Shown: positions 814 through 46,252 of the stretch, piece after piece
How positions within the stretch are numbered: the first letter of the stretch is position 1
Layout of the letters: every line of letters starts with the position of its first letter
Virus record (IMG/VR): IMGVR_UViG_3300042539_001144
Coordinates: 1 to 61,534 of that record
Direction: 5' to 3' (one strand)
From: a virus
Lineage: Duplodnaviria; Caudoviricetes
DNA length: 61,534 bases
The notes under the pieces: generated by a model
Databases searched by the model: none
The model's input: the letters and a program-made list of their open reading frames with translations, nothing else
Told to the model about the DNA's origin: nothing
Made by a program: the position numbers and the translations under genes

Positions 814-832
814 GAGCGGCTGACTGTTCTGG
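814..832 (+). promoter_or_regulatory. Early junction motif copy
   Basis: GAGCGGCTGACTGTTCTGG; matches consensus GATCGGCTGAnwGTTyy. Confidence 0.55.
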
Positions 833-893
833 AGGGACGACCAACACACCGCGACCGCTCCCCTCCGGTGGTCGTGACGATGGAGGATGAACG

Positions 894-1133
894 ATGGACG
901 CGATCCGCACTCGGCAACTCTCGGTGGCCCTCTCTGGCGACGACGCCACGTTGGTCGTCGCGGCACTCGCCGCGTTCCGGGTGGAGATGGAGACCGCCAT
1001 CTTCAACACGGAGCACACCACGGACCACGACGACGACGACGCGAACGATTCCATGGCGATCAACCGCCGCCGGATCGCACAGTGCCAGCGGTTGTGCGAC
1101 CAGATCGTTTCGGCCCTCGTCTTCGCCCGCTGA
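894..1133 (+). CDS. hypothetical protein
   Basis: GGAGG RBS; 79 aa; first gene of the early block. Confidence 0.7.
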   Translation: MDAIRTRQLSVALSGDDATLVVAALAAFRVEMETAIFNTEHTTDHDDDDANDSMAINRRRIAQCQRLCDQIVSALVFAR

Positions 1134-1137
1134 TCGC

Positions 1138-1157
1138 TGATCGGCTGATTGTTTCGG
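1138..1157 (+). promoter_or_regulatory. Early junction motif copy
   Basis: TGATCGGCTGATTGTTTCGG. Confidence 0.65.
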
Positions 1158-1170
1158 ACACACCACCACG

Positions 1171-1206
1171 ACGGCCCGCACGGGAGCGTTTCCCGCTGCG
1201 GGCCGT
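1171..1206 (+). other. GCGTT-loop bulged hairpin
   Basis: ACGGCCCGCA-CGGGA-GCGTT-TCCCG-C-TGCGGGCCGT, followed by TTTCAGGAG RBS. Confidence 0.7.
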
Positions 1207-1229
1207 TCGCATTTCAGGAGACCCCATCG

Positions 1230-2126
1230 ATGATCGCGTGCAACACCACCACCGGCCCGGTTCCCCTGATCGAACCGGCGGGCGAAGAGTTTCAGGTCGG
1301 CGAGATTCTCACGACGAACGCCAAACTGGAGAAGGCCCCCGACGGCGACGAGATCATGGTCCGCGGCGTCAGCATGGCACCGGCGAAGCGTAGCGGCGTC
1401 GGCAACGTCTGCCTGTTCGCGACCCGGGCCTGCATCATGGCGTGCGTGCTCTGGTTCGGCGGTCGCACCGTCACCGAGTCCGTGCGGCACGCTGCCATCG
1501 CCCGGACGCTGCTGTTCTTCCTGCACCCCGGCGTGTTCTTCGCCCGCCTCGACCGCGAACTGCGGAAGTGGCTGCGGGCGGCTGAGAAGGCTGGCGTGCG
1601 GTTGTACGTCCGCCTCAACACGGCGTCGGACATCACCTACGCCCCGTGGTTCATGCGGCAGTACCCCGGCTGCACGTTCTACGACTACACGAAGGACTAC
1701 GACCGGGCCTTGGCGTACGGTCGCGGGCTGCTGGCCGACAACTACCACGTCTCGTTCAGCGTGAGCGAATCCACGACGTGGGAGCAGGTCGCCACGCTCC
1801 ACGCCCTCGGCGTCAACCTTGTCGTGCCCGTGTCGTCGCACTACGTGCCGCAGGAGCACCAGTACGGCTACCTGCCCGAGCAGATCGTGTTCGTCGGCCC
1901 CTGCGGCGAGCGGATCACCACCGTCTGCCGCGACGGCGACAAGAGCGATCCCCGCGTGCCGGAGTACGACGGCCGCGGCGTGAGCGTGGGCCTGCGTGGC
2001 AAGGGAACCAACGCCGCGAAGGCTGCCGCGAACGAGCACGAGTTCTTCCGCCCCTTCGGCCTCGGCGACCAGTACTTCGCCGAGTTCCGCCAGAAGGGCA
2101 CCTGCATCGTGCGGCTCGCCGCCTGA
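1230..2126 (+). CDS. GP88-family protein
   Basis: VRLNTASDI, FYDYTK, NYHVSFS, DGDKSDPR and VGLRGKG motifs typical of phage Gp88-like proteins; CAGGAG RBS before ATG 1230. Confidence 0.75.
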   Translation: MIACNTTTGPVPLIEPAGEEFQVGEILTTNAKLEKAPDGDEIMVRGVSMAPAKRSGVGNVCLFATRACIMACVLWFGGRTVTESVRHAAIARTLLFFLHPGVFFARLDRELRKWLRAAEKAGVRLYVRLNTASDITYAPWFMRQYPGCTFYDYTKDYDRALAYGRGLLADNYHVSFSVSESTTWEQVATLHALGVNLVVPVSSHYVPQEHQYGYLPEQIVFVGPCGERITTVCRDGDKSDPRVPEYDGRGVSVGLRGKGTNAAKAAANEHEFFRPFGLGDQYFAEFRQKGTCIVRLAA

Positions 2127-2143
2127 TCGGCTGACTGTTTCGG
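2124..2143 (+). promoter_or_regulatory. Early junction motif copy
   Basis: TGATCGGCTGACTGTTTCGG, overlapping the stop codon. Confidence 0.65.
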
Positions 2144-2180
2144 AGTACTGATTCCCCAACCCTCAACGGAGACCCTGACC

Positions 2181-2534
2181 ATGTCCTGCGTCGGCTACAA
2201 ACTCTGCCGCTGCCGTCACTCCACGCCGCACCTTCGCGGCATGGTGGCTTCGTGCCGCCACTCCGGTGCCACCGTGTACCGCATCCGCGTCTGGTTCGGC
2301 GGGCTAACGCCCACCACCGAGAAGCGGGCCACGAAGTGGTCGGCATCCCGGCTGCTGTCCGACGTCATGCGTCGATACCCGCAGGCCGTGCGGATCGACA
2401 TCGACTGCGACACATCGCGTCCCTGCACCGAGGACTCACCCAAGGGCGTCATGTGGGTGGCCGCGAAGCCGCAGACGGTCGAGTGGGAGCGTGACCGCGA
2501 CTGCTACGAGATCAACGACGAGTACCGTTCCTGA
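2181..2534 (+). CDS. hypothetical protein
   Basis: GGAGACCCTGACC-ATG leader; 117 aa. Confidence 0.65.
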   Translation: MSCVGYKLCRCRHSTPHLRGMVASCRHSGATVYRIRVWFGGLTPTTEKRATKWSASRLLSDVMRRYPQAVRIDIDCDTSRPCTEDSPKGVMWVAAKPQTVEWERDRDCYEINDEYRS

Positions 2535-2562
2535 CCCCAACCCCAACCCGGAGACCCTGACC

Positions 2563-2847
2563 GTGAACGTCCACCTCAATGCCGATGCCCCCAACGCCAA
2601 CGATGTGCCGACGCTGCACAACCTGACCTACATGACGCTCGCGGAGTACTGCCGGGTCGGCGGCTTCGACGAGGAGGTCATCCGCGAGACGCTCGCCCTC
2701 TGCGAGGTGACTTGGGGATCGCCTGCCACGGAGACATTCCTCCGTGCGTCCGACGTTGCCCTCGCCTGCGAGTTGCACTGCGTCGATTCTGCGGGGGCTG
2801 TGCCTGCTGGCATCTCCCCCGACCTGTTCGTGCGGCTCGACGCCTGA
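2563..2847 (+). CDS. hypothetical protein
   Basis: Identical GGAGACCCTGACC leader before GTG 2563. Confidence 0.65.
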   Translation: MNVHLNADAPNANDVPTLHNLTYMTLAEYCRVGGFDEEVIRETLALCEVTWGSPATETFLRASDVALACELHCVDSAGAVPAGISPDLFVRLDA

Positions 2848-2870
2848 CCACACACCCACAACCCAGTACT

Positions 2871-2906
2871 GCGGCCCCGCCGGGAGCGTTTCCCGAGCGG
2901 GGCCGC
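2871..2906 (+). other. GCGTT-loop bulged hairpin
   Basis: GCGGCCCCGC-CGGGA-GCGTT-TCCCG-A-GCGGGGCCGC, then GTTTCAGGAG. Confidence 0.7.
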
Positions 2907-2930
2907 GGTCGTTTCAGGAGGAGAGTTCCC

Positions 2931-3311
2931 ATGATCCGCGTTCGATTCCACCTCGGTGCCGGTGCCCACTTCATGCACTGGCAGATCACGCACCACGACG
3001 GCAGCGTGACCTACCACGACCCCGACGCCTGCACCCTCACCATCTGGCAGGGCAGGCTCCGCAACCAGCCCGCCGCTGCGGCCCGCATCCACGCCGGTGC
3101 CAACAAGACCGTGTGTGCGTGGATCGAAGCCGAGCGGGTGGACGTTGACCCGGGCGTGTCGGGCGTGATGGGCGGTGCCCACGCTTCCTACAACCCGCGG
3201 GTCGCACCTCACTGGGTGATCAACGGACAGAACTCGGACGGTCGCAGGTTCCCGGTGCTCACCACCGCAGGGAGCCGCGTGTTCGTGCCCGAGATGCAGG
3301 CGATCGGCTGA
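2931..3311 (+). CDS. hypothetical protein
   Basis: AGGAGG RBS; MIRVRFHLGAGAHFMHWQI start. Confidence 0.7.
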   Translation: MIRVRFHLGAGAHFMHWQITHHDGSVTYHDPDACTLTIWQGRLRNQPAAAARIHAGANKTVCAWIEAERVDVDPGVSGVMGGAHASYNPRVAPHWVINGQNSDGRRFPVLTTAGSRVFVPEMQAIG

Positions 3312-3320
3312 TAGTTCTGG
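3302..3320 (+). promoter_or_regulatory. Early junction motif copy
   Basis: GATCGGCTGATAGTTCTGG; its TGA is the upstream stop codon. Confidence 0.65.
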
Positions 3321-3351
3321 ATCGACAACCTCAACACGAAAGGACGATGCG

Positions 3352-3756
3352 ATGACCATGCGATTTGAAGGCAAGTTCCAGTGCAACCCGCAGCCCGGCG
3401 ACTTCCTGACCCTGAACGTCGGCAGCGTCGAGGTGCGGGCCACCATCAAGCACGACGGCCACTCCCGGCCATCGGACTACGAGTGCTACACGCCAGCCGA
3501 CTGCGAGTCGTGGAGGCGGGGCGAGTGGTACTTCTGCGGCGTCGTGATCTCCGTGCGTGCCAACGGCCGCTCGGTGGACGAGCACCACGAATCCCTGTGG
3601 GGCATCGACGTCAACAACTCGGGCGACTACGTCACCGAGATCGCCAACGACATGGCGAAGCGTGTCGATCTGACCGAAATCGCACTGCGTCTCGGCGAGT
3701 GCTCGCGATCCCTGCGTAACGCACGGGACTCGATGCTGCTCGGCTCGCCCGTCTGA
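3352..3756 (+). CDS. hypothetical protein
   Basis: AAGGA RBS; 134 aa. Confidence 0.7.
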   Translation: MTMRFEGKFQCNPQPGDFLTLNVGSVEVRATIKHDGHSRPSDYECYTPADCESWRRGEWYFCGVVISVRANGRSVDEHHESLWGIDVNNSGDYVTEIANDMAKRVDLTEIALRLGECSRSLRNARDSMLLGSPV

Positions 3757-3841
3757 CCCCGGCCCGTGGTCGGCAGCCCTCCGCGTGGCGGGCTGCCATC
3801 CGTGGATCGTGGATCGCTTGAACCTACCGGAGTACTGAATC

Positions 3842-4297
3842 ATGGCTGACGTGAAGTGGTCGGTGAGCAATGACCGCGAAGACGACGAGGCGTATATCGA
3901 GAACGAGCGTGGCGTGGAGTGCGTCCAGATTCAACGCACAAACGGCCCAGCCCTGACCCGGGGCGAGTTCGACGTGATCGTCGACCTCATCGCTGCCGCA
4001 CCGGAGATGCTCGCCGCACTGCGTGACCTGCGTGCCACGCTGGAGGCGTTGACGGGGTGGCGTGAACTCGACGGCACGCAGATCGATCAACTCATCGCCA
4101 GCGATGGGCTGCACTACCTCGACAAGGTCATCGCCAAGGCCGAGCCGGTTCGCGAGGTTCGCCGGAAGGTGGAAGTCACGGTCGAGGTCACACTCGACGT
4201 GCAGGCGGGCACCGATGACGCCACCCTCGCCATGATCGCGGTCGATGCGGTGCGTGACGGCGGCGGCGCTGTCACTGCCCACAAGGTGATCGGCTGA
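3842..4297 (+). CDS. hypothetical protein
   Basis: LIAAAPEMLAAL motif common in phage early proteins. Confidence 0.75.
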   Translation: MADVKWSVSNDREDDEAYIENERGVECVQIQRTNGPALTRGEFDVIVDLIAAAPEMLAALRDLRATLEALTGWRELDGTQIDQLIASDGLHYLDKVIAKAEPVREVRRKVEVTVEVTLDVQAGTDDATLAMIAVDAVRDGGGAVTAHKVIG

Positions 4298-4306
4298 TAG
4301 TTCCAG
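4287..4306 (+). promoter_or_regulatory. Early junction motif copy
   Basis: TGATCGGCTGATAGTTCCAG. Confidence 0.65.
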
Positions 4307-4314
4307 ACACACAG

Positions 4315-4356
4315 ACCACGACCCCGGCAGGTGCGTTGCCTGACCGGGGTCGTGGT
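4315..4356 (+). other. GCGTT-loop bulged hairpin
   Basis: ACCACGACCCCGG-CAGGT-GCGTT-GCCTG-A-CCGGGGTCGTGGT, then GTTTCAGGAG. Confidence 0.7.
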
Positions 4357-4370
4357 GTTTCAGGAGGTGC

Positions 4371-4718
4371 ATGATGAATCGGTATCAGTTCACGAACGCG
4401 GCGGGCTTTCGCCTCGTCGAGCGGTGCCTCAAGTTCAACACCGCGATGACGCTCGGCGAGGTGCCGTGCCTTGAGGTGGAGGGGTGGCTCGCGGTGGAGG
4501 GGTATCGCGGCGAGTTCGCCATGCACGAGTTCGTGCAGTGGCTCAAGGCCAACGCCCCGTCGTCCACGTCCGCAGCCAAGGTGCTCGGGCTGGTGGCGAT
4601 GGGCATGGCATCGGAGATGGTTCGCGACCGGGAGTTCATCGACAAGGTGGAAGCGTTCCACTCTGCGATGACCCGGCGGTTCGGTGTGGACAAGAGCGAC
4701 GTGAAAGGGGGCGAGTGA
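4371..4718 (+). CDS. hypothetical protein
   Basis: AGGAGG RBS; 115 aa. Confidence 0.7.
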   Translation: MMNRYQFTNAAGFRLVERCLKFNTAMTLGEVPCLEVEGWLAVEGYRGEFAMHEFVQWLKANAPSSTSAAKVLGLVAMGMASEMVRDREFIDKVEAFHSAMTRRFGVDKSDVKGGE

Positions 4719-5047
4719 TGCGACGAGGCACCAACGTCATGCGGCTCCGCGATGAGCGGGCCAAGGACATGAAGGCGGAGCGGTGGTCGAGGGTCAACGT
4801 GCGGGGCATCAACCCGTACACCATCGACCGGGTGGTCGGCACCTTCACCACGGAGTTCTCTCGCACTGGGCGGAGCCTGCCCATCGGCGAGTACTCCACC
4901 GTGGAGGTGCGGGCGTACGACGTGCGGTGCCCGGACGGCACCACGTTCCGGTTCGCCCGACTGAAGGACGCGAAGACGTTCATCGTGTACGAGAGCAACG
5001 GCCTCCTCATCCCGGCAGCCCTCGCTGCTGGCCTGAAGGTGGGCTGA
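4718..5047 (+). CDS. hypothetical protein
   Basis: TGATG coupling to the upstream gene. Confidence 0.6.
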   Translation: MRRGTNVMRLRDERAKDMKAERWSRVNVRGINPYTIDRVVGTFTTEFSRTGRSLPIGEYSTVEVRAYDVRCPDGTTFRFARLKDAKTFIVYESNGLLIPAALAAGLKVG

Positions 5048-5355
5048 TGCGAACCGTCACGGAGGACGAGTACCGGGTGAGCAAGCGAGTCGTGCTCACG
5101 CCCGGCGTGAAGTTCAGGGCAGGCGGCGGGCCGTACTACCGCCTGTCCGATGGCACGAAGGTGAGCCTCGCTGCGGCGGGCCCCTTCACTTTCGTCCGCT
5201 GCCACAGGCGGGGGAAGTACGTGCTGATCGAAGCACTCGACAGGAATGGGTGCTTCGCTCCGCTCCATGTGGCAGGCCGACGGGCAAGGATCACGCCCGC
5301 ACTCGTGCCTCGTCCCTACGTGATCCGTTCCACGGTGAGGAGGAAGGAATCGTGA
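5047..5355 (+). CDS. hypothetical protein
   Basis: TGATG coupling; MRTVTEDEYRVSK start. Confidence 0.6.
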   Translation: MRTVTEDEYRVSKRVVLTPGVKFRAGGGPYYRLSDGTKVSLAAAGPFTFVRCHRRGKYVLIEALDRNGCFAPLHVAGRRARITPALVPRPYVIRSTVRRKES

Positions 5356-5762
5356 AGACCGCGAAGCGAGTGGATCTCCGCCCCATCCGGGCTGCGTTCC
5401 GTGAGTTGATGAAGTACGGCATCCTCTGTGAGGGTGGCCGGTGGACGTGCTGCCAGTCGTGCGGACAGCACGACATGCAGTTGCGGTGGGACAAGGCGGC
5501 CGAGGGCGAGAAGCCTCTCGGCTACGCCTTCTGGCACGCACAGGACGACGACCTGCTGCGTGAGACCGGCGAACTGTGGCTGGCGTTCAATGCCTTCGAT
5601 CAGGTCGACTCCCGGTTCGTGGGCAACCTCGTCGTCGGCGTGCTGAAGAAGCACGGCGTGCGGGCACGGTGGAAGGGCGACGTCCGCACCCGGATCGAGT
5701 GCATCCTCGGGTGGCGCGAAGTGGGCGTGCGATTCGTCACGAAGAAGGGAGGTGCGAAGTGA
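5352..5762 (+). CDS. DUF6891-like protein
   Basis: AFREL..GI...TCCQSCG, GYAFWHAQD, LWLAF and WKGDVRTRI pattern; GTGA coupling. Confidence 0.6.
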   Translation: MKTAKRVDLRPIRAAFRELMKYGILCEGGRWTCCQSCGQHDMQLRWDKAAEGEKPLGYAFWHAQDDDLLRETGELWLAFNAFDQVDSRFVGNLVVGVLKKHGVRARWKGDVRTRIECILGWREVGVRFVTKKGGAK

Positions 5763-5962
5763 GTGGCGATGACGTGCGAGAGACGGTGGCTGGTTTCATG
5801 CGGGCGGCTGGACTGCACCCGTCGCTGATCTACGCCTTCCGCAAGACGGGACTGTTGGTGGGGGAGGATACGCCCCACTCGGATGCAGAGCGGAAGGAGT
5901 TCGTCGATGCCGCCGATGAGTGGTGGAGCCAGAACGAAGTGGTGAAAGGAGGTGCGAAGTGA
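5759..5962 (+). CDS. hypothetical protein
   Basis: MRAAGLHPSLIYAFRKTGLLV; GGAGG RBS; GTGA coupling. Confidence 0.65.
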   Translation: MSGDDVRETVAGFMRAAGLHPSLIYAFRKTGLLVGEDTPHSDAERKEFVDAADEWWSQNEVVKGGAK

Positions 5963-6033
5963 GAGACGAGCAATGGATGCTCGTGATCGAGGTGATCCGC
6001 GTGATCATCGAGATCATCCGGCACGGAGGCTGA
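5959..6033 (+). CDS. small hydrophobic peptide (24 aa)
   Basis: GGAGG RBS, GTGA coupling; MRDEQWMLVIEVIRVIIEIIRHGG; stops at the junction motif. Confidence 0.45.
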   Translation: MRDEQWMLVIEVIRVIIEIIRHGG

Positions 6034-6049
6034 TCGGCTGAGTGTTTTG
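6031..6049 (+). promoter_or_regulatory. Early junction motif copy
   Basis: TGATCGGCTGAGTGTTTTG. Confidence 0.6.
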
Positions 6050-6054
6050 ACGAG

Positions 6055-6098
6055 GCACGGCAGGCCACGGGGGAGCGTTTCCCTCGTGGCCGCCGTGC
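6055..6098 (+). other. GCGTT-loop hairpin
   Basis: GCACGGC-A-GGCCACGG-GGGA-GCGTT-TCCC-TCGTGGCC-GCCGTGC. Confidence 0.65.
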
Positions 6099-6170
6099 TT
6101 TACGGGGGTGGACGGACTCATTGACGGCACCCGGATGATGAACGAGTACTCAATCACAAAGGACTGACAG

Positions 6171-7052
6171 ATGATCGCAACCAATCTCCCCTCGGCTGCC
6201 GAGGGTGCTCTCGTTTGGGTGAACCACGCCGGGCGTGTCCGGGTCAACGTGGTTCGCTCCGTGTTCTCGAACCTCGGGCTGGCGAAGTGCCTGCCCCGCA
6301 AGGAAAAGCGGGCCATCGCCCTGCGGCTGGCGATCAAGGCGTGGCTGATCGCACGGTACGGGAGGAAGGACGCCCGCACCATGCGTCTGTACCCGCTCGA
6401 CCGCCGGGTGCTCGGGTTCGAGGTGCGTCGGAAGGTGGATGGCACCGAGCAGAACGATCACCCGTACGTCTGCACCGTGAAGGCCGACGACCACGGGGCG
6501 TACGTCACGTACGCCGGTGCGGCTGGCCCGCAGCAGGAGACCGACGACGTGACCCGCATCTACCTCGACCGCGTCGAGTGGTACTGCGGCACGACGGTCG
6601 GCTCGCTGATCAAGCGTGCCATCACCGAGAAGTGGATGGGCACCTCGCTCAAGAGCAACGGCGGCCTGTACTTCCTGCCCGGCCAGTACCTGCCCAACTA
6701 CCGGGCGCTGGCCGACGGCATGGAGCGGAGCCCGTCCAACCCGGACTCCGAGTTGGTGATGACCGTCGCCACGTTCGACGTCCGCAACAACCCGAGCGTG
6801 GCCCGTGACGCGATGCTCTCGCTGCGGCAGGAGATCAAGGCGGCGACCGACGAGATCAACGCAGACCTCGTCGGTGCCCACGAGATGACCGAGTCGGGCA
6901 TCGCCAACCGCAAGGCCCGGCTGGCACGGCTGCTCGCACAGGCGGCGGAGTACTCCGCCCTGTTCGAGGCCAGCATCGACGACCTGAAGGGCATGGTCGA
7001 GGGCACGCAGAGCGCCCTTGCCATGGCCGAGTTGGCCGAGGCTTCCGCCTGA
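6171..7052 (+). CDS. hypothetical protein, DUF3150/DUF6744-like
   Basis: GGLYFLP motif and coiled-coil C-terminus; lies beside the AAA/VWA pair. Confidence 0.55.
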   Translation: MIATNLPSAAEGALVWVNHAGRVRVNVVRSVFSNLGLAKCLPRKEKRAIALRLAIKAWLIARYGRKDARTMRLYPLDRRVLGFEVRRKVDGTEQNDHPYVCTVKADDHGAYVTYAGAAGPQQETDDVTRIYLDRVEWYCGTTVGSLIKRAITEKWMGTSLKSNGGLYFLPGQYLPNYRALADGMERSPSNPDSELVMTVATFDVRNNPSVARDAMLSLRQEIKAATDEINADLVGAHEMTESGIANRKARLARLLAQAAEYSALFEASIDDLKGMVEGTQSALAMAELAEASA

Positions 7053-7068
7053 TCGGCTGTGTGTTCTG
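7050..7068 (+). promoter_or_regulatory. Early junction motif copy
   Basis: TGATCGGCTGTGTGTTCTG, then a GC hairpin at 7081-7111. Confidence 0.6.
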
Positions 7069-7143
7069 AGCGATCTCGATGCGGGCGGCGGGCACTGTGC
7101 TCGCCGCCCGCCCTGTTTCACCCCCGAGTTGGAGGACTCTTTG

Positions 7144-8262
7144 ATGTTCAGTCACCCCATGTGGTTCGCGTTCGTTGTCATGCAGACCATGATCCCCACC
7201 CTGCTGATCGGCCCGCCGGGCTGCGGCAAGACGGCCTCGATCATGGCTCTCTCCCACGCCATCAAGCGGCGGTTCGTTCCGCTGATCGGCAGCCAGTGCT
7301 CGCCCGAGGACGTGTCCGGCCTGCCCGTGCCGGACATGGTGAAGTTCCTGTGCCGCATGATGCCCATGTCGTGGGTCGAGGCACTGCTCACCCCGGGCGG
7401 GCTGCTCGCCCTCGACGAGTTCGGCAACACGCCCCCGTCGGTGCATGCCTCGCTGCTCACCGTGATTCAGGACAAGAGGGTCGGCGACCTGACCCTCGAT
7501 CTGGACACGATGATCGTGGCGATGATGAACCCGCCGGAGCAGTCGCCCAACGGCACGCCGCTGTCGCTGCCCACTGCCAATCGGTTCTTCATCACCGAGT
7601 GGAAGAACGACACGGCAGCGTGGATCGACGGGCTCGCAGCCGGGTGCGAGTGGGCTGCCCCGCAGATGCCCATCCTGCCTGACGACTGGAAGACTCGCGT
7701 CCCCCGGTGGGGTGCGCTGCTCGCCACCTATCACCGCCGGTTCCCCGGCCGTGACAACGTGCTGCCGAAGGACGACACGATCCTCCGCTACCCGACCGAG
7801 CGGTCGTGGAGGAACGCCGTTCACTGCCTCGCTGCTGGCGAGGCTGCGGGTGCGGACATGTGGACCGACCAGTCCAACGTCCGGCTCATGGCAGCCGGGT
7901 GCGTCGGTGATCAGGCGGCCGACGAGTTCTGCGAGTGGAAGAGCACGTTCGACATGGCCGATCCGCTCGACATCCTCGACGGCAAGGTGACGTTCAAGCA
8001 CCGCGACGAGCGGCCGGACATCACGATGACCGTGCTCGCTGCTCTCGCCTCGGCGGTGAGCACCGAGTCCACGTTCACGCCGGACCGCTGGGATGCGGCG
8101 GCCATGATCTTCGGTGAGGTTGGCAAGACCAGCCACCCGGAGATGGCGCTCCGCTACACGCGGCTGCTGCTCGATGCGACGGCGAAGTTCAAGCACGCCC
8201 CGTCGGCGAAGGTGCTCAAGCCCCTCGTCGAAATGAACGCGGCGATGAAGGTGGGCGGCTGA
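7144..8262 (+). CDS. MoxR-like AAA+ ATPase
   Basis: Walker A GPPGCGKT, Walker B LALDEF, sensor MNPP, arginine finger ANRF, PTERSW. Confidence 0.9.
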   Translation: MFSHPMWFAFVVMQTMIPTLLIGPPGCGKTASIMALSHAIKRRFVPLIGSQCSPEDVSGLPVPDMVKFLCRMMPMSWVEALLTPGGLLALDEFGNTPPSVHASLLTVIQDKRVGDLTLDLDTMIVAMMNPPEQSPNGTPLSLPTANRFFITEWKNDTAAWIDGLAAGCEWAAPQMPILPDDWKTRVPRWGALLATYHRRFPGRDNVLPKDDTILRYPTERSWRNAVHCLAAGEAAGADMWTDQSNVRLMAAGCVGDQAADEFCEWKSTFDMADPLDILDGKVTFKHRDERPDITMTVLAALASAVSTESTFTPDRWDAAAMIFGEVGKTSHPEMALRYTRLLLDATAKFKHAPSAKVLKPLVEMNAAMKVGG

Positions 8263-8271
8263 TTGTTTCGG
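8253..8271 (+). promoter_or_regulatory. Early junction motif copy
   Basis: GGGCGGCTGATTGTTTCGG, then a GC hairpin at 8274-8303. Confidence 0.6.
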
Positions 8272-8333
8272 GAGGGGCGGCTCGTCACGGTGGCGGGCCG
8301 CCCCATCCCGACCAACACACAAGGGACACAGCG

Positions 8334-9914
8334 ATGGACGCGATGCGAGCGAAGGTTGCCCAGTTCAGGACGGCGGTGAAGAAGATTCTCCCGTACTTCA
8401 CGGGCGAGGTCTACGGCATGATCGCCATCGAGGAGAAGCGCGTCGGCACGATGGCGGTCGACGAGCAGGGGCGGATGTACTACGCCCCCGAGTTCGTGCG
8501 TCGGTGCTCGATCGAGCAGGGCCGGTTCACTGTCTGCCACGAGACGCTGCACGTTGCGCTCGGCCATGCTCGGCTGGCCCGCAAGATTCTCGGCGACAAC
8601 CCGACGCAGTCCATGCTCAAGGCGTGGAACTACGCCGCCGACTGCGTGGTCAACCAGATTCTCGGTGCGTACCTGCACGAGGCGCCGGGCGAGGACGTGC
8701 TCGGCCCGGGTGCCACGATCGTGACGCACCAGACGCTCGGCCTGCCGCCGCGGCTGACCATCACGCAGTACTACGACCTGCTCATGCAGCAGCAGCAGGA
8801 GCAGCCGCAGAACCCGGGCCAGCGTGGCACGGGCAAGGACGATGACACGGAGGACGACGAAGATGAAGACATGGAAGGGGCCGGTGAAGGTGAGCCTGAT
8901 GATCGGGACGGCGAACCTGACGAGCAGGGAGGTGGTGATGGTGGGGAACAAGACGTTCCTCACGATCCTTCTGAAGGCGATGGCGAGGGTGGCGAAGAGG
9001 ACGAAGGCGACGACGACGGTGAAGGTGAGGGTGGCGCTCGTCCCGGCGAAGGAGGTGCCGAACGGGACGGTGGTGCTGATCGCCCGTCGCAAGATGGCGT
9101 CGAGGATTCGTCGGACGCTGAAGGCGAAGGGTGCGACGGCGACCCGGCCGACGACGGTGGGGACGGGTCGTGGTCTCCGACTGGCGGCAGCGGCGCTGAC
9201 GGAGTGCCTCGCGGATACGAGGCCGAGCGAGACCCCTCGTGGGTCGACCGCGAGTACTCGCTCGCCAAGCAACTCGAAGCCGCCATCGAGGAAGCCGAGC
9301 GATCGTCGCCGGGCTCCGTCCCGGGCGAGTTGAAGGCGGCGGTCGGCCTCCGGCTACGGCCACAGCCTGACCCGTACGACGCTCTGCGTGCGTCCGTGGC
9401 TCGGGCTGTGGCCTCGCCGGTCGGTGCCCCCGACTTCACGCTGAAGCGGTTCAGCCGCAGGCAGCAGCCGGGCATGCCGCGCCTGCGTGGCGTGAACAAA
9501 CTCACGCCCAACGTCGTGGTCCTGCTCGACACGAGCGGGTCGATGGGCTTCAGATGCCCGGGCTACGAGCGAGCGGAGCGTGCCCTCGACGTGATCGCGA
9601 AGGGCATACGGAAGTTGAAGTCCGTGCGTGTCATCTGCTGGGACACGCAGAAGCACAGTGCCCGCATGGTGCAGTCCATGCAGGGCTTCGAGGTGCAGGG
9701 TGGTGGCGGCACCGACATGGGGCAGGCCATCGAGACGATCGACAAGGAACTCCGGCCCGACGCCATCCTCATGGTGACGGACTTGGAGACCGGCTGGTGT
9801 GAGCGGAAGCCTAGGGCCCGTGTCGTGATCGCTGCGACCGAGGCGCCGAGCGAGTACTACCCCGTGCCGGGATGGGCGACTGTCGTGGACCTGACACGCG
9901 GAGGTGGGCAATGA
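8334..9914 (+). CDS. DUF2201-family metallopeptidase-VWA protein
   Basis: HETLH zinc motif, WNYAAD, long acidic linker, MIDAS DTSGS, GGGGTD, MVTD. Confidence 0.88.
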   Translation: MDAMRAKVAQFRTAVKKILPYFTGEVYGMIAIEEKRVGTMAVDEQGRMYYAPEFVRRCSIEQGRFTVCHETLHVALGHARLARKILGDNPTQSMLKAWNYAADCVVNQILGAYLHEAPGEDVLGPGATIVTHQTLGLPPRLTITQYYDLLMQQQQEQPQNPGQRGTGKDDDTEDDEDEDMEGAGEGEPDDRDGEPDEQGGGDGGEQDVPHDPSEGDGEGGEEDEGDDDGEGEGGARPGEGGAERDGGADRPSQDGVEDSSDAEGEGCDGDPADDGGDGSWSPTGGSGADGVPRGYEAERDPSWVDREYSLAKQLEAAIEEAERSSPGSVPGELKAAVGLRLRPQPDPYDALRASVARAVASPVGAPDFTLKRFSRRQQPGMPRLRGVNKLTPNVVVLLDTSGSMGFRCPGYERAERALDVIAKGIRKLKSVRVICWDTQKHSARMVQSMQGFEVQGGGGTDMGQAIETIDKELRPDAILMVTDLETGWCERKPRARVVIAATEAPSEYYPVPGWATVVDLTRGGGQ

Positions 9915-10648
9915 CGTTCGACGAACAGGTGGCTGCGCTGCGTGGGAAGGTGGAGCCGAAGCAGTTCAGGGGCGGGAAAGGCGCTGCCACGCCAGAGCAG
10001 TGGGCCGCCCACCTTGACGACGCAGTGCTTTACAAGCGGGCGAGGGCAGAAAGCAGCCCCGAGTGGAGACATCGCTACCGAGAGGCCGACCGCACCTACA
10101 CGCGAGAGTGGAAAAGGAAGAACGCCGGGAGAGTGCGGGAGTACAAGGCAGCGCGGCGCAAGGCCGGGGCCGACGCAGTTCGAGAGCGCGAATACCGCGA
10201 GAAGAACCGGGGGAGGATTCGCGAACGGTACCGGTCGTGGTGTGCTCGTGCTCGCTCAACGGACGTCCACTACCGACTCGTCAAGTCCGTCCGCGGAAGG
10301 CTCCGCGTGGCCGTGAACGGTGGCTACCGATCTGGCTCCGCCGTCCGTGACCTCGGCTGCTCGATCGAGGAACTCAAGTCCCACATCGAACGGCAGTGGG
10401 TCGGCTGTATGTCTTGGGAGAACTGGGGCAGCGGGCCGGGGACTTGGCAGATCGACCACGTCTACCCGCTGGCACAGACAGACCTGACCGACCGGGCCCA
10501 ACTGCTGGCGGCCTGCAACTGGCGGAACCTTCAGCCGATGTGGTTTGAGGACAACGTACGCAAGGGCGATACCGTCACGCCCGAAGCGCAGCAACTGTTT
10601 GACGGGCTGGTCTCGGAGTTCACGGAGGTGCGTGATGAAGTTGCGTAA
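9911..10648 (+). CDS. HNH endonuclease
   Basis: MSWENWG...WQIDHVYPL...NWRNLQPMW..N.RKG; ATGA coupling. Confidence 0.8.
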   Translation: MTFDEQVAALRGKVEPKQFRGGKGAATPEQWAAHLDDAVLYKRARAESSPEWRHRYREADRTYTREWKRKNAGRVREYKAARRKAGADAVREREYREKNRGRIRERYRSWCARARSTDVHYRLVKSVRGRLRVAVNGGYRSGSAVRDLGCSIEELKSHIERQWVGCMSWENWGSGPGTWQIDHVYPLAQTDLTDRAQLLAACNWRNLQPMWFEDNVRKGDTVTPEAQQLFDGLVSEFTEVRDEVA

Positions 10649-11309
10649 GTCGCAGAAGGAGTCGTGGCTGATGCGGGTGCTGATGGATCGGAAGGCCCGG
10701 CCCCTGCCGTACGTCGGAGGCATAGACCTCATGCCCATGGGCCGCACGCTGCTGCGGAAGTGGGCCGACAGGTACTGCGGCGGGTACGGGAAACTCACGC
10801 CGGAACATGCGGTCCGACTGCACGATCGGCTTGTAGTTATGGCGAAGGACATCGACGGTGCGGTCGTCGAGTGCGGCATGGTTCGTGGCCCGGCGTGGCA
10901 GCCCGGATACCTGTGGGCCTACGGTGCCATCGCCGTGCTCGACGAGTACGGCCGGGCGACCAGCGGGTCGGTGCTGATCCCCGGTGCCTCGGCCGTGCCG
11001 TACTACGTGCGCCGCAGCCTGACCAGTCCGAGGCAGTACCACCGCAGCCTCCGCCTGTGGGATGACCTGTGCCCAGTGATCGAGGACATCGCGTCCCCGG
11101 AGACCGTCACCCTCAACCGGAATCAGGTCGCCCGCAAGGACGACGTGAGACCCGGCGACTGCTATCTCTACGACCTGACCCGGGCGCACTCGCCGCGGGT
11201 GGTCGTGGAGAACTTGTACTTCGGCCGGGCCTGTCGGTTCGGCCTGCTCGACGAGATGATTGATACGGCACGGTGCCGTATCGTGTTCGGTTCCCTCGCT
11301 AGTGCGTGA
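10635..11309 (+). CDS. hypothetical protein
   Basis: GGAGG RBS before ATG 10635. Confidence 0.65.
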   Translation: MKLRKSQKESWLMRVLMDRKARPLPYVGGIDLMPMGRTLLRKWADRYCGGYGKLTPEHAVRLHDRLVVMAKDIDGAVVECGMVRGPAWQPGYLWAYGAIAVLDEYGRATSGSVLIPGASAVPYYVRRSLTSPRQYHRSLRLWDDLCPVIEDIASPETVTLNRNQVARKDDVRPGDCYLYDLTRAHSPRVVVENLYFGRACRFGLLDEMIDTARCRIVFGSLASA

Positions 11310-11317
11310 GGTGTGCG

Positions 11318-11413
11318 ATGAACTATCCGTCGGTCCTTGAGATCGTGCAGACGTGGTGCATCATTGTCTGCGTGTACTTCTTCCTCGTAGCCCATAACAG
11401 AATGAGGGTGTGA
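11318..11413 (+). CDS. small membrane peptide (31 aa)
   Basis: GAGGTG RBS; MNYPSVLEIVQTWCIIVCVYFFLVAHNRMRV; fills the gap between neighbours. Confidence 0.4.
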   Translation: MNYPSVLEIVQTWCIIVCVYFFLVAHNRMRV

Positions 11414-11414
11414 C

Positions 11415-11774
11415 ATGACTGGACGATACTGGATGGTCGTGCGGCCCGGCAGATGGTCGCCGGACGAAAAGCGGTTCCCCACCGGGGCCGATGCTCTTGA
11501 GTACGCGCTTCGCTTGGTTCGCCGGGCCAAGCGCAGCGCATTCGTGAAGCACAGGGAGCACTGCCCCGTGCGAGTCTTCGTGGTGACCATGTACGGCGAC
11601 ACCCCCGACGGCATCGCCTACGAGACGGCGATGTACGAGACCGGCGGGCGAGGGGATTACCCAAACTCCGGGCGGTCCATCGACACGGAGTTGCAGGCCG
11701 AGGTCGATGCATCGTGGCAGCACTACTTCATCCACAACCCTGACCAGAAAAGTCTTGAAGAGGAGGACGACTGA
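11415..11774 (+). CDS. hypothetical protein
   Basis: 119 aa; TGATG-coupled to the recombinase. Confidence 0.6.
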   Translation: MTGRYWMVVRPGRWSPDEKRFPTGADALEYALRLVRRAKRSAFVKHREHCPVRVFVVTMYGDTPDGIAYETAMYETGGRGDYPNSGRSIDTELQAEVDASWQHYFIHNPDQKSLEEEDD

Positions 11775-12556
11775 TGGCTACGTGCTACGGATACGGTCGA
11801 GCCAGCACCGACAAGCAGGAACTCACCGAGCAGGTGCAGTCCAAGTCGGTCAAGGAAAAGTACTCCGCCCTGCTCAAGCCCAAGGGCGTCAAGTGGGGCG
11901 GGTGGTACTACGACGCGGCGGTCTCGGGCAGCAAGCCGTTCACCGAGCGGCCCGCTGGCCTGCGCATGTGGATGAACCTCCAGCCCGGGGACTACGTGGT
12001 CACGCACCACAGCGACCGTGCGTTCCGTGACACGGCCGACGGCCTACGGACCTCGGCCCTGTTCCGGGCGAGGGGCGTCGTGCTTGTGATGCCTGACATC
12101 CCGCACGATCTGGAGACTGCGGACGGCGAGATGATGGCGACCATTCAGTTCGCATTGAATCTCCGCGAGCGCCGCAAGGTGGCGGAGCGTACCGCCGCTG
12201 CCATGCGCGTGCTGTCCGAGCGCGGCGTCCGGTTCGGCGGGGCCCGGCAGAGCACGCCAATCGGCTGGCGGTGGGGCGGCGCGGGCTACGTCGAGGACGC
12301 GGAGGAGCGGGCCCGCGTCGAGCAGATGGCCCAGTGGTACGAGTCCGGCCTGTCGCTGGAACGCATCGAGATGCGTGTGTCCTACCCGCCGTACCAGTGG
12401 AAGAGGCGCAGCACTAGCAGTCGCTTCGGAAACTGGTCTCGTCGGTACGTGGCGTTCGCTCTGGAGGCTCGTCGTCTTGGCTATCCGAAGGTCTTCCTGA
12501 ATGGTCGGAGACGCAAGACCGCAGCGCGTCCAGCGCATCAAGCATCCGCGACTTGA
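11774..12556 (+). CDS. serine recombinase (resolvase family)
   Basis: YGYGRASTDKQ catalytic Ser, SG..PFTERPAG, GD.VV...DRAFR, ERRKVAERT helix. Confidence 0.9.
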   Translation: MATCYGYGRASTDKQELTEQVQSKSVKEKYSALLKPKGVKWGGWYYDAAVSGSKPFTERPAGLRMWMNLQPGDYVVTHHSDRAFRDTADGLRTSALFRARGVVLVMPDIPHDLETADGEMMATIQFALNLRERRKVAERTAAAMRVLSERGVRFGGARQSTPIGWRWGGAGYVEDAEERARVEQMAQWYESGLSLERIEMRVSYPPYQWKRRSTSSRFGNWSRRYVAFALEARRLGYPKVFLNGRRRKTAARPAHQASAT

Positions 12557-13016
12557 TCGTCCGCCAGTCCCTGCCTCGGTCTCTTCCGATGGCGTTGAGG
12601 GACTTGCCCTCTAAGACGTGGGCCTCGATGAGTTCCCTGTCCTCCGGCGGCAGCAGGCGCAAGCATGCCATGGCCTGCTGCCGCTGGTCGGTGGCGAACG
12701 ATATGCCGAGGGCCTTGCCGAGATCGATGCGCTCGTTGGCCGCTTCCTTCGATCGCTGCACACGCTTCACTTCCTTGAGAAGGGCGTGGCGGATGGCCGA
12801 CCCGTAGTACGTGGTCGGCTTCGACTTCGACCGATCGTAGGTGAACGACGCCTCGACGACAGCCAACTCCGCTGCACCATTCAGGTCGCAGTGTCGAATC
12901 AGCCGGGCGTAGCACGGGTGCCGAGCGACGAACATTCGCACGGCAGCAGGCACGAGCCCGAGCGCTTCTTCCGCCATCGCCTTCTGCGATGACGACAGCC
13001 GACGCTTCTTCTTCAT
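12414..13016 (-). CDS. sigma-70 family sigma factor (regions 2 and 4)
   Basis: VVEASFTYDRSKSKPTTYYGSAIRHAL (region 2); LPPEDRELIEAHVLEGKSLNAIG (region 4 HTH). Confidence 0.8.
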   Translation of the reverse strand: MKKKRRLSSSQKAMAEEALGLVPAAVRMFVARHPCYARLIRHCDLNGAAELAVVEASFTYDRSKSKPTTYYGSAIRHALLKEVKRVQRSKEAANERIDLGKALGISFATDQRQQAMACLRLLPPEDRELIEAHVLEGKSLNAIGRDRGRDWRTIKSRMLDALDALRSCVSDHSGRPSDSQDDEPPERTPRTDETSFRSDC

Positions 13017-13148
13017 CGCATCTGCCTCACCCACGAGTCGGCCCGCCACGTTCGGGCGCACGCCTTCTCATGGCAGCGCGGGCACAGCGTCGGCTCGCAC
13101 CGCAGGCCGTGGCTGTCCACGCCCACCGTCGCCGGGCGGGAGCCGCAG

Positions 13149-13518: not shown

Positions 13519-13893
13519 CTATGCGGCAGACCCGGGCTTCCCTGCTTTTATGGCTGCCTTCCGCCCAGCCGCGGCAGGGTTCCGCCATCTCCGGCCGAGG
13601 GTCATGTCCGGGTCGTTGGCGAACCGCTCCAGCGCATCCTGCACGCCGCCCTCTTCGAGCCCGAGGTGCTCGCACGCCTCGGAGAACGGGATCACTGCAT
13701 CGCCCCCGTACATCCACGACCGGGCTGCGTCCCGCTGCCGCCTGAGTTCCTGCCGGTAGAGCAGGGCGGACTTCTTCTCGTTCCGCCGCAGCCCCCGGTC
13801 GGCCAGCACGAACGCAGCCTGCCCGATCAGGGCAGCGCACAGCCTGCGGTACGCCCCGTCGATCTCCTGCCGCGAGAGGTGGTCGAACGTCAC
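13519..13893 (-). CDS. hypothetical protein
   Basis: GGAGG RBS, GTGA coupling; AARSW...FSEACEHLGL motif. Confidence 0.65.
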   Translation of the reverse strand: MTFDHLSRQEIDGAYRRLCAALIGQAAFVLADRGLRRNEKKSALLYRQELRRQRDAARSWMYGGDAVIPFSEACEHLGLEEGGVQDALERFANDPDMTLGRRWRNPAAAGRKAAIKAGKPGSAA

Positions 13894-14273
13894 TGCTGCA
13901 CCTCCACGTTGGCGGCCTTCGGCGGGCGGCAACCCGGCTGACGCAGGTCGTCGTTGAGTTGGGGCCACACTTCCTCCGAGTGGCAGGCGAACAGCAGGTT
14001 CCACGCGGCGTGCCCGAGGTGGTCCTCCGACCTGTCGCCTTCGAGGTACGAGTAGATGTGCGACAGGGCGTGGTTCAAGAACACGCTGATGGGCAAACCC
14101 CGCTCGACGTTGAACGCCCCGTACTTCTCCGCCCCCTCGTGGCTGGCCTGCGCCACACGCCGCAGCCCGACCGGCGTGAGCAACTCGAACCGCACGTCCT
14201 TCGCCGTGCGCTTGGCGCCCATGCCGTACGTCGCCACGCCGTCCTGCACCTTCGGCCGATCGAACAATCCCAT
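13890..14273 (-). CDS. dATP/dGTP diphosphohydrolase domain protein (DUF5664-like)
   Basis: RFELL.P, GAEKYG..N..RG, EDHLGHAAWNLLF. Confidence 0.85.
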   Translation of the reverse strand: MGLFDRPKVQDGVATYGMGAKRTAKDVRFELLTPVGLRRVAQASHEGAEKYGAFNVERGLPISVFLNHALSHIYSYLEGDRSEDHLGHAAWNLLFACHSEEVWPQLNDDLRQPGCRPPKAANVEVQQ

Positions 14274-14761
14274 CACTGCACCCCCTCCGATATGAAGTCG
14301 GACATTGGCCGCAGCGCACGCTGCGGAACAAACCATGCCGACCTGTGTCCATGCGGGTCTTTGATCCACTGGTCTTGCTTTGCCTCGCCCCCGGGCAGCC
14401 AGCCCGCCAGCCTCACGCCAGTGCCCTCGACGATGGCGAGGACGTACCGACGGTCGTTGGCGTCGTTGTCTCTGACAATCAGGCTGCCGTCGGCGCGGTC
14501 GGTGGCCCGAACCTCTACGTCCTTGAGGAAGTCGGGGCGATTGTGGAATGTGTTGATGCTGGGCACGAACCACTTGTTGGTGGCCTTGCCGAGTGCGATC
14601 TCGCCGCACGCCCCGACCACCTCTTCCTTGAGGCGGGTGATCATGTCCCGCTTGTATGTCGAGGAGTGGTTCAGGCCCTGCGAATATGACGCCACGATCC
14701 GCATCATCGCAGTTGATACAGCAAGGTCGAACTCCGGAAGCGTCATCTGCACGGTACTCAT
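14273..14761 (-). CDS. conserved phage protein, possible PD-(D/E)XK fold
   Basis: GACGEIA...PD...VEVR pattern. Confidence 0.6.
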   Translation of the reverse strand: MSTVQMTLPEFDLAVSTAMMRIVASYSQGLNHSSTYKRDMITRLKEEVVGACGEIALGKATNKWFVPSINTFHNRPDFLKDVEVRATDRADGSLIVRDNDANDRRYVLAIVEGTGVRLAGWLPGGEAKQDQWIKDPHGHRSAWFVPQRALRPMSDFISEGVQ

Positions 14762-18191: not shown

Positions 18192-18529
18192 GCTGCCTCC
18201 GTCGCGAGGCGGCGGCGAAGCGAGGCGTACATCCGCTGGAGCCGCTCGTTCCGGTAGTTGGCGCCCACGTAGCGGGTGGCCCGCTCACTCGGGCTCCAAC
18301 TCTCCCTGATGGCTGCGGCCCGCTCTTCGATCTCCTGCGGGGTAGGGTCCGTACGGTTCGGGAGACCCCTCCTCAACGGCGGGCGGCGTGTGTTCGTGAA
18401 CTTCAGGTAGGCGTAGAGCGACGTCTTCGAGATGCCGCACGCCATCGCCGACTTCATCACCGACACGCCCGACAGGTACATCTCCACCGCCTTCGACACC
18501 TGCATCGACCTCGACCCGATCCGATCCAT
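18188..18529 (-). CDS. HTH DNA-binding protein
   Basis: GVSVMKSAMACGISKTSLY HTH; AAGGAGG RBS. Confidence 0.65.
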   Translation of the reverse strand: MDRIGSRSMQVSKAVEMYLSGVSVMKSAMACGISKTSLYAYLKFTNTRRPPLRRGLPNRTDPTPQEIEERAAAIRESWSPSERATRYVGANYRNERLQRMYASLRRRLATEAA

Positions 18530-20363: not shown

Positions 20364-20406
20364 CGGTATTCTGTCTGAAAAGGACGTAGTGTACAGGGGT
20401 ACAGGT

Positions 20407-25318: not shown

Positions 25319-25321
25319 CGG

Positions 25322-27805: not shown

Positions 27806-27812
27806 GCGTCAC

Positions 27813-33027: not shown

Positions 33028-33060
33028 ACCGCCTCCTGCTATCGTGCTGCTCCGCCCTGT

Positions 33061-46222: not shown

Positions 46223-46252
46223 GCCAGCCTCTCCGTGGGTGCTTCGCCCTTG

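Follow-up and report, generated by a model that had tools for sequence, protein, structure and literature searches.

An oriented, conserved motif in the gene linkers of a probable planctomycete phage as a candidate phage-specific promoter element

Results

A strand-specific motif recurs along one arm of a complete phage genome

We analysed a 61,534-bp stretch of viral DNA (IMG/VR record IMGVR_UViG_3300042539_001144, Caudoviricetes; hereafter, the window), which is an entire virus record with direct terminal repeats, rated 100% complete, and which carries a short oriented motif, GATCGGCTGANWGTTYY, at successive gene junctions of one of its arms. Gene calls, made with a codon model trained on the long open reading frames (ORFs) of the window, placed a + strand arm of ~19 mostly small genes at 894 to 12556, a long − strand arm running from 56138 down to 12414, and a mixed region with genes on both strands at 56.2 to 61.5 kb. 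Across the whole + arm, Pfam families of unknown function predominate; an L5 gp88-family protein, DUF6891, a MoxR-type AAA ATPase, a DUF2201/VWA (metallopeptidase) protein and a small serine resolvase were recognised there, together with weak matches under cut-off to the L5 gp82 family and to DUF6744. PHROGs added an endonuclease VII-like protein, and ten proteins of the arm scanned against PHROGs returned no family of known function.

A search for GATCGGCTGANWGTTYY allowing up to two mismatches yielded nine matches in the window versus 0.20 expected, and none of 100 shuffles reached nine. Eight of the nine correspond to copies reported in a first-pass annotation of the DNA, which proved real, all on the + strand as described, and at most one base off the coordinates given there. 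The first of them (814..830) precedes the first gene of the arm (start 894), and the second (1139..1155) lies 7 nucleotides (nt) downstream of a stop codon. Copy 3 (2125..2141) overlaps with its first bases the TGA of the GP88-family gene, copy 4 (3302..3318) contains a stop at motif positions 8-10, copy 5 (4288..4304) likewise has a stop within the motif, and copy 6 (6032..6048) follows a 25-codon ORF. Copy 7 (7051..7067) marks the junction of the DUF6744-like gene with the MoxR-type ATPase gene, and copy 8 (8253..8269) that of the ATPase gene with the VWA-metallopeptidase gene. The stop-codon association claimed earlier was borne out at six of the seven between-gene sites (2125, 3302, 4288, 6032, 7051 and 8253), where the motif supplies the upstream stop, the one at 6032 being read manually from the 25-codon ORF. 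The ninth match (10524, − strand, two mismatches) lies in coding sequence and was treated as chance. A further + strand copy of the variant form GATCGGCTTGTAGTTAT, absent from the first-pass annotation, was found at 10824..10840 within gene 10632-11309, where it encodes DRLVV.

When both strands were scanned with a weight matrix, the nine + strand sites scored 19.7-30.1 bits, and the next-best score (19.1 bits) fell within a gene at 34623 (−). Since the iterated matrix drifted to take in weak sites, it was used for ranking only. The same scan returned no junction sites outside 814-10824, in agreement with the earlier remark that the late region lacks the motif.

The motif is conserved in related genomes

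Relatives were sought by a homologue search with the 293-amino-acid protein encoded at 6171-7052, which returned 22 proteins (43-100% identical); alignment of these homologues led to loci in four viral records (G001-G004), plus five short metagenome loci left unanalysed. G001 shares ~80-97% DNA identity with the window, and G002, G003 and G004 share 78%, 44% and 44% protein identity, respectively. A second search, based on an alignment of the phage sigma factor described below, added 12 loci, among which L521 (sigma 54% identical) bears a motif array. Arrays are thereby seen in the same arm of five related genomes (G001-G004 and L521), with all copies on the coding strand of that arm: six sites of GAYCGGCTTGTAGTTYY plus one window-type copy in G001; about ten of GWGCGGCTAGNNGTTYT in G002; seven of GAWCGGCTGRTTGATTN or ...GTTN in G003 and six of the same forms in G004; and six of GATTGGCTGATTGWTTY in L521 by pattern, with two more by eye. 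As in the window, a copy stands ahead of the first gene of the arm in G002, G003 and G004, and G001 has a degenerate one there. Variants are uniform per genome (TGTA in G001, AGTA in G002); nonetheless, both variant kinds occur in each genome. The first-pass annotation had further described the core as an imperfect palindrome. Such a palindrome, ATCGGCTGAT, is present in the window but is not kept in relatives, and because these carry ATCGGCTTGT and AGCGGCTAGT instead, it is probably irrelevant.

Exact-variant scans of 2.9 million viral contigs found more than one copy per contig only in the known relatives, among the matches listed; outside these relatives the IMG/VR matches listed were single ones, which we take to be chance. 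De novo 10-mer counts in distant relatives gave GC-rich noise only. By these scans, the motif belongs to one small clade of phages, probably temperate ones that infect freshwater Planctomycetota.

A logo of 42 non-identical sites, from 45 collected across six genomes, revealed one block of ~20 nt (−1 to +20) with the invariant core CGGCT-N4-G-W-T. Positions G5, C7, T8, G13 and T15 are invariant, G6 and C4 occur in 98% and 88% of sites, and elsewhere from −45 to +65, outside −3..+22, the information content stays at or below 0.69 bit. The A+T content is 64% at motif positions 9-17 versus 35% at positions 1-8, the genome standing at ~34%. The motif is a real, single-block, strand-specific and conserved cis-element.

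Two intragenic placements bear on its role. G002 holds a 19-nt copy, identical to another G002 copy, within an HNH/endonuclease VII-like gene (G002 4324) and 135 nt ahead of the next gene; without any indel, it turns the conserved peptide DRAQLLA, retained in the window, G001 and G003, into VRLVVLA. The window and G001 have their intragenic copy 192 nt into the following gene instead. Because both copies occupy the sole stop-free reading frame of the motif, the motif would seem to be wanted in this part of the arm whatever the stop codons or hairpins, as expected of a promoter for the distal genes; the same copies would be harder to fit to a stop-linked or hairpin-linked role.

Modular linkers join stop codon, motif, hairpin and ribosome-binding site

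We curated 39 sites in five genomes, those of G003 and G004 being largely the same sequences and thus not independent. Three sites are intragenic and 29 have a called gene upstream; of the seven others, for which none was called, four open the arm, two come after a 25-codon ORF and one is close to a record end. All 29 sites with an upstream gene have its stop codon within the motif or no more than 10 nt away: at −1 to +2 of the motif in 17 cases, at +8 to +10 in seven, at +11 to +13 in one, and 4-10 nt upstream in four. Taking a folding energy ≤ −20 kcal/mol ahead of the next start as the mark of stability, we found a hairpin after the motif at 26 of the 36 non-intragenic sites, with three sites ambiguous and seven without, and it is always downstream of the motif, 3-30 nt after it. 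A linker thus runs from a stop lying in the motif through a short AC-rich spacer and, in many cases, a GC-rich hairpin to the Shine-Dalgarno sequence and the start codon.

The repeated succession of spacer, hairpin and ribosome-binding site described in the first-pass annotation held in the window for the copies at 1139, 4288, 6032, 7051 and 8253, was borderline at 814, and failed at 2125, which has no hairpin ahead of the next start codon, and at 3302, which has none after the motif. All window hairpins considered here are on the + strand. The one at 1169..1209 has a GCGTT apex and is followed by TTTCAGGAG and the start codon at 1230; a member of the same family at 2871..2906 has no motif directly ahead, and neither does a hairpin between two genes at 3772..3797. 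The hairpin after motif 5 (4315..4356) has a near-identical counterpart in both G001 and G002 and a similar one in G003, and motifs 6, 7 and 8 are followed by hairpins at 6052..6101, 7081..7111 and 8274..8304. At the junction of motif 7, between the DUF6744-like and ATPase genes, the sequence has been replaced in G002 and G003 and the hairpin retained: the hairpin sequences of the window, G002 and G003 are wholly different, with a 13-14-bp GC-rich stem in all of them. One hairpin family displays compensatory changes at 5 of 15 pairs (eight sequences), and many apexes are GCGTT or a near variant. A strict alternation of one motif with one hairpin, seen in the window, fails in G003.

In the window the apex GCGTT(T/G)CC occurs at ~1185-1190, 2885-2890, 4332-4338 and 6075-6080. 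It resembles the GGCGTTG(T/C)CC / GGCGTTGCC context of host tRNA-Pro −35 boxes.

Genes are exchanged between persisting linkers

When relatives were aligned, joints of gene gain, loss and replacement often fell at motif units, in the comparison with G001, between G003 and G004, and in lake sequencing runs. Genes 2181-2847 are missing from G001, with the left joint at 2126, within motif 3, and the right joint in a 20-nt sequence common to two gene ends. Gene 4371-4718 is missing as well, and its left joint (4367) comes right after motif 5, its hairpin and its ribosome site; other joints between the window and G001 are at plain gene ends. The motif at G003 56993 divides a stretch to its right, in which G003 and G004 are 99.4-99.5% identical, from unrelated sequence to its left; G004 has one extra gene flanked by that motif and a decayed second copy. 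Contigs from four lake DNA runs skip or replace single genes of the window, with joints from 1224 to 2123, 2585 to 2849, 2920 to 3087, 3122 to 3302, 3356 to 3756 and 4146 to 4316. Three of the right ends are at or beside a motif start, and the left ends are at ribosome sites or start codons.

These comparisons show that linkers persist while the genes between them change. About half of the joints coincide with motif-free gene ends, start codons and plain ends being as frequent as motifs, and for this reason the joints appear to fit ordinary homologous recombination between conserved linkers rather than the action of a site-specific enzyme. The cassette recombination suggested in the first-pass annotation is thus supported in that joints lie at motif units, and disfavoured in so far as it implies a dedicated recombinase site, given that motif-free joints are equally common.

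Host-type promoters adjoin the integrase and not the motif-bearing arm

A tyrosine integrase was identified by family search at 20416-21258, and beside it, at 20236-20283, an attP-like 3′ part of a tRNA-Pro(CGG), whose anticodon loop and T arm were recognised by eye. Exact copies of these 48 nt occur in 86 stretches of one-genome-per-species contigs and, among the matches listed, almost all are in Planctomycetota assemblies (Pirellulales, Planctomycetaceae, Thermoguttaceae and others), with few other labels. On account of the integrase and of this tRNA-Pro piece matching Planctomycetota genomes, the phage is probably temperate, with a freshwater planctomycete as its host. Public runs each holding at least half of the sampled words of the window (24 listed, from 24 studies) were all lake or freshwater DNA metagenomes.

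In five planctomycete genomes (20.6 Mb), a 17-nt pattern had ten exact matches versus none for the reversed control. All ten were inside long open frames, two of them representing one conserved coding site, which is suggestive of a motif that is not a host signal; the result is not final, because a host using weaker versions could make the perfect consensus rare.

Upstream regions of host tRNA-Pro genes contained TTGNNN-N16-18-TANNNT in 68 of 80 cases, with the consensus TTGNCC-17-TANNCT. TTGTCC, TTGCCC and TTGACG were the commonest first hexamers and TAATCT the commonest second one, the spacer was 17 nt long in 55 promoters, and GGCG preceded the first hexamer in 31; one host rrn operon carries TTGACC-16-TATCTT. 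From these tRNA-Pro and rrn upstream regions (L151-L230, L533), the promoter consensus of freshwater Planctomycetota can be derived as (GGCG)TTGTCC/TTGCCC, a 17-nt spacer and a TAATCT-like hexamer.

In non-coding DNA of the window, a loose host-type pattern occurs three times, all beside the integrase: at 20345-20372 (+), before int; at 20388-20416 (−, TTGACC-17-TACACT), heading the − strand gene string from 20027 to 12414 in which the sigma gene is last; and at 21267-21294 (+). A strict version of the pattern found the 20388-20416 site in G001 too. No host-type promoter was detected in the 370 bp ahead of the + arm, where the best candidate, seen by eye and conserved in G002, has a 19-nt spacer. 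With the only non-coding host-type promoters adjoining the integrase, the name 'early region' given to the + arm in the first-pass annotation becomes doubtful, and the arm may be a sigma-dependent middle class. The anti-defence role raised there as a possibility for its genes stays conjectural, given the Pfam and PHROGs results described above.

The attP-like tRNA-Pro part separates the promoter-like site at 20388-20416 from the gene string that this site heads (20236-20416). Integration at attP would sever the promoter from the sigma string and could silence the prophage without a classical repressor. The non-coding stretch before the + arm (445-813) contains CATTC repeats, G runs and a hairpin with a GGGAACC loop, the stem of which differs between the window and G002 with its pairing retained.

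The phage encodes an ECF-like sigma factor and carries a second motif class

The sigma factor mentioned in the first-pass annotation does exist. It is encoded at 12414..13061 (−), was missed by the gene caller, and is ECF-like (extracytoplasmic function; sigma2 + sigma4); we regard it as a candidate reader of the motif. Its family scores are at or below curated cut-offs: Sigma70_r4_2 gave 27.9 bits in a six-frame search and 25.4 bits as protein, TIGR02937 (ECF superfamily) matched over positions 31-164 of 165 (E = 1.2e-6, under cut-off), and weaker sigma matches included planctomycete-specific sigma subfamilies. An AlphaFold model built on four sequences had a mean pLDDT of 71 (85-92 over residues 21-100), and the best 50 PDB fold matches listed were all sigma factors, with low TM-scores, as expected for two mobile domains. 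The protein is conserved in all six motif-bearing genomes, with identities of 77, 67, 50 and 50% in G001-G004. Domain searches of the phage found neither a NusG NGN domain nor HTH_3; PF00940, the mark of a T7-type RNA polymerase, was not found in the phage either, in a search whose control also found it nowhere.

A second motif class, CCATAA(A)CARGGCG (the CCATAAACA element), flanked by short GC inverted repeats, occurs on the − strand at 56162-56175, 48915-48928, 46245-46258 and 33053-33066, in each case 15-30 nt before the Shine-Dalgarno sequence of one of four structural operons. It was also found in G001 and G002, and not in this form in G003 and G004; a weight-matrix scan gave no motif-like score for this class on the + strand. 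We regard it as a candidate late promoter.

Further features of the phage genome

The − arm contains replication and recombination genes (helicase, ERF, PD-(D/E)XK nucleases, HNH), then three giant ORFs (21596-31379) with no family match and no PDB sequence match, and then structural genes (portal, large terminase, major head protein and an SU10-type adaptor, terminase and adaptor being under cut-offs). The G+C content of the window is 62-73% (2-kb windows), and a tRNA gene search returned none. GenBank phages include no near relatives by DNA, protein comparison with them gave remote matches only, to the ATPase and the terminase, and no prophage relatives were found in one-genome-per-species contigs. 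A small helix-turn-helix (HTH) protein is encoded at 18188-18562.

Other observations concern single loci. A match to the DUF3800-VIII RNA family (Rfam RF03075) lies at 58392-58457 (−), with 58.9 bits versus a gathering score of 40.2. The protein encoded at 13890-14276 (−) has the N-terminal domain of dATP/dGTP diphosphohydrolases (PF18909, E = 3.5e-15), which hints at nucleotide-pool or modified-base chemistry. The word GCGCAGACGTA occurs five times at a spacing of 135-138 bp (35515-36058) within gene 33501-36164 (−), a recurrence that indicates tandem repeats of ~45 residues in a large virion protein. Gene 60316-61086 (+), whose transcription is separate from that of the main arms, encodes a 256-amino-acid protein that may serve in lysogenic conversion or exclusion; its N terminus has a membrane or signal segment, and its C terminus is PEP-CTERM-like.

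Discussion

We tentatively favour, with a confidence somewhat short of an even chance, the reading that the + arm is served by a phage-specific promoter class, set in modular linkers and recognised through the motif; within this reading, the phage sigma factor would be the probable reader of the motif. Host RNA polymerase core carrying the ECF-like sigma (12414-13061), itself made from the gene string headed by the host-type promoter-like site at 20388-20416, would recognise the motif, and transcription would start a few bases past GTT. Transcripts begun there would carry the hairpin in their 5′ leader, read-through RNA would have it at its 3′ end as well, and its part would be that of a stabiliser or a leaky attenuator. 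Because all linkers share the same sequences, recombination between them would swap whole genes. The confinement of nine strong sites to the + strand between 814 and 10824 counts for this promoter reading.

Several observations weigh against it. None of the 24 public runs listed for the phage was RNA. The hairpin always comes after the motif, and polymerase starting at the motif would run into this terminator-like structure within 15-60 nt. As a rule, an ECF sigma requires −35 and −10 elements ~17 bp apart, and the 42-site logo reveals no partner element between −45 and +65. The two loci with 35-39%-identical sigma factors that were read (L522, L528) have no recognisable motif, and they do possess hairpin-TTTCAGGAGG linkers. 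The strict host-promoter pattern had no matches in G002-G004, so the argument by elimination extends to the window and G001 only. Finally, the second motif class would be an equally good or better candidate target of the sigma factor.

Some other assignments were weighed by eye on printed sequences, without a statistical test, and set aside. A sigma-54 −24/−12 promoter would have the wrong spacing and no GC doublet, a sigma-28 −10 element on the opposite strand has no −35, an ECF −35/−10 pair lacks a partner element in either orientation (by the logo, on the sense strand), and the motif as a −35 box finds no −10 box 17 nt on. A likeness to the 3′ part of 16S rRNA is short and unsupported, and the hairpin apex with TTTCAG, read as a host-type promoter, has a −10 without TA.

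Among other explanations, we consider it unlikely that the motif controls elongation, with the DNA or nascent RNA loading a factor that lets polymerase pass the following hairpins, in the way of lambda nut, RfaH ops or HK022 put but with reuse at each junction. The invariant order of motif, spacer and hairpin wherever both elements occur, the compensatory changes that hold the hairpins, their shared GCGTT-like apex and the few T residues after the stems are all in keeping with such control, as is a 6-nt overlap (TTGTTC/TTGTTT) with a boxA-like element of host rrn leaders. That element was matched in only 3 of 25 leaders, by a pattern built on a consensus, and the resemblance ends there: host boxA lacks the invariant CGGCT half, and the motif lacks the boxA core CTTTGA(A/C)AA. 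Moreover, nut and ops act once per operon, and nine loaders per arm would be unlike either; the phage has no NusG-type NGN domain by domain search, some copies are intragenic (10824) or have no hairpin (2125, 3302), and the search upstream turned up no host-type promoter that could feed the arm. Rather more doubtful is a stoperator-like roadblock, in which a prophage repressor bound to asymmetric sites would halt polymerase entering the arm, after the example of L5 gp71 in Cluster A mycobacteriophages. Asymmetric sites co-oriented with transcription in short intergenic places, genome-specific motif variants, a temperate phage with tyrosine integrase and tRNA-type attP, and relatives of the L5 gp88 and gp82 families in the arm would all suit it. 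Yet the sites span only 10 kb of 61.5 kb instead of both arms genome-wide, a domain search returned no HTH_3-type repressor and Pfam and PHROGs named none among the proteins scanned, many phage proteins matching no family, the presence of both variant kinds in each genome leaves no clean specificity switch, and a promoter would equally account for the A+T-rich 3′ half and for the copy that precedes the first gene.

Two remaining explanations put the motif to work in RNA or in DNA exchange. The former, which we hold to be distinctly improbable, would have the motif in mRNA serve as a cleavage or binding site that, with the hairpin, cuts polycistronic RNA into stable units (cf. RNase III sites between T7 genes), or couples translation termination to what follows. 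It draws on the stop within the motif at 25 of the 29 junction sites with a called upstream gene, on hairpins directly ahead of Shine-Dalgarno sequences and on the strand specificity of the motif; it is opposed by the read-through of intragenic copies in their sole stop-free frame, by the unstructured motif itself, by a GC-rich half unlike known RNase E-type sites, and by the other promoter that the arm would still require. Least probable of all, and very improbable in our view, is a dedicated recombination site at which a phage recombinase or nuclease moves gene cassettes in an integron-like manner. Homology does break at the motif, as between G003 and G004, an extra G004 gene does lie between the motif and its decayed copy, an exact 19-nt copy has been implanted in a conserved G002 gene, and the phage encodes a resolvase, ERF, HNH nucleases and an endonuclease VII-like protein. 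Against this, no inverted-repeat or attC-like structure is present and the palindrome is not conserved, start-codon and plain-end joints are as many as motif joints, and the tyrosine integrase is 8 kb off, beside a tRNA-type attP of its own.

Returning to the promoter class favoured above, a bolder extension, offered as an unlikely speculation, is that a sigma-specific promoter doubles as a self-spreading recombination module and so drives gene-cassette exchange among co-infecting planctomycete phages. With the help of the phage's own recombination genes, motif copies would enter new places, even conserved coding sequence (G002 4324). If true, this would be a promoter-based counterpart of the integron, in a phylum where phages and transcription signals have received next to no study; a limited, targeted literature search found no description of the transcription organisation of planctomycete phages or of a promoter consensus for the phylum. 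The present analysis offers three testable signals (a host-type promoter consensus, a 20-nt motif class for one arm, and a second motif class before structural genes) together with a phage sigma. The motif-hairpin linkers show the exchange of gene-sized modules at base resolution in a natural lake population, and the pair of sigma and motif, if true, would be a compact orthogonal expression part for planctomycetes.

How far these linkers resemble known systems can now be considered, beginning with the three analogies drawn in the first-pass annotation. L5-type stoperators are reported to be likewise asymmetric, transcription-oriented, short intergenic sites with lineage-specific variants in temperate phages, but the sites here are in one arm and 17-20 nt long, and no repressor was identified; stoperator sites of Cluster A are 13-14 nt. 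In the want of a genome-wide distribution and of an identifiable repressor, that analogy is not supported. The lambda nut site, built as boxA-spacer-boxB, is likewise a linear element with a short spacer and a hairpin with a conserved apex; here, however, there are nine copies per arm and no identifiable N-like or NusG-like protein. The nut analogy is not supported either, as the likeness to host boxA covers at most 6 nt (TTGTTY) and CGGCT is absent from the three host boxA-like sites. Beyond these analogies, integron attC sites are imperfect inverted repeats with RYYYAAC and GTTRRRY cores and an adjacent IntI-type integrase, whereas the present motif is asymmetric, with GTT followed by pyrimidines, and the integrase (20416-21258) sits beside a tRNA-type attP. 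In phages of the T7 group, promoters are phage-specific single blocks of ~20 bp that point the same way as the genes and often extend over the end of the preceding one; an RNase III hairpin and a ribosome site come next. This layout of promoter, hairpin and gene matches the linkers here, with the difference that no single-subunit RNA polymerase was found in the window (by the PF00940 search whose control found none anywhere).

In phiEco32, a podovirus-type phage, a very divergent sigma, gp36, is made after infection and reads the single consensus AATGTA at −11.5 for middle and late genes, thus one short block and not the two of the host, much as would be the case here (PMC12276001). The window also has a weak match, under cut-off, to the adaptor of SU10, a phiEco32-like phage. 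The two consensus sequences are unrelated (AATGTA versus CGGCT-N4-GWT), and here a sigma that reads the motif is what we infer.

The best fit of the three original analogies, by virtue of the repeated linker layout and the joints at linkers, is the promoter/stem-loop cassette of T4-type phages, known as PeSL (promoter-early stem-loop) in RB49 and phi1 (PMC2839356). PeSL units and the present linkers are both repeated intergenic cassettes with an upstream stop, promoter (here a candidate one), stem-loop, Shine-Dalgarno sequence and start codon, both are concentrated among small genes of unknown function, and in both, indels and replacements between close relatives end at cassettes, although in our case not every joint is at a motif. 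PeSL promoters match the host sigma-70 consensus, whereas the motif here is unlike a host promoter, and the PeSL stem-loop overlaps the promoter or precedes the start site, whereas the hairpin here follows the motif by 3-30 nt. The principle is known from T4-type phages, but the linkers here are built on a non-host promoter-like element.

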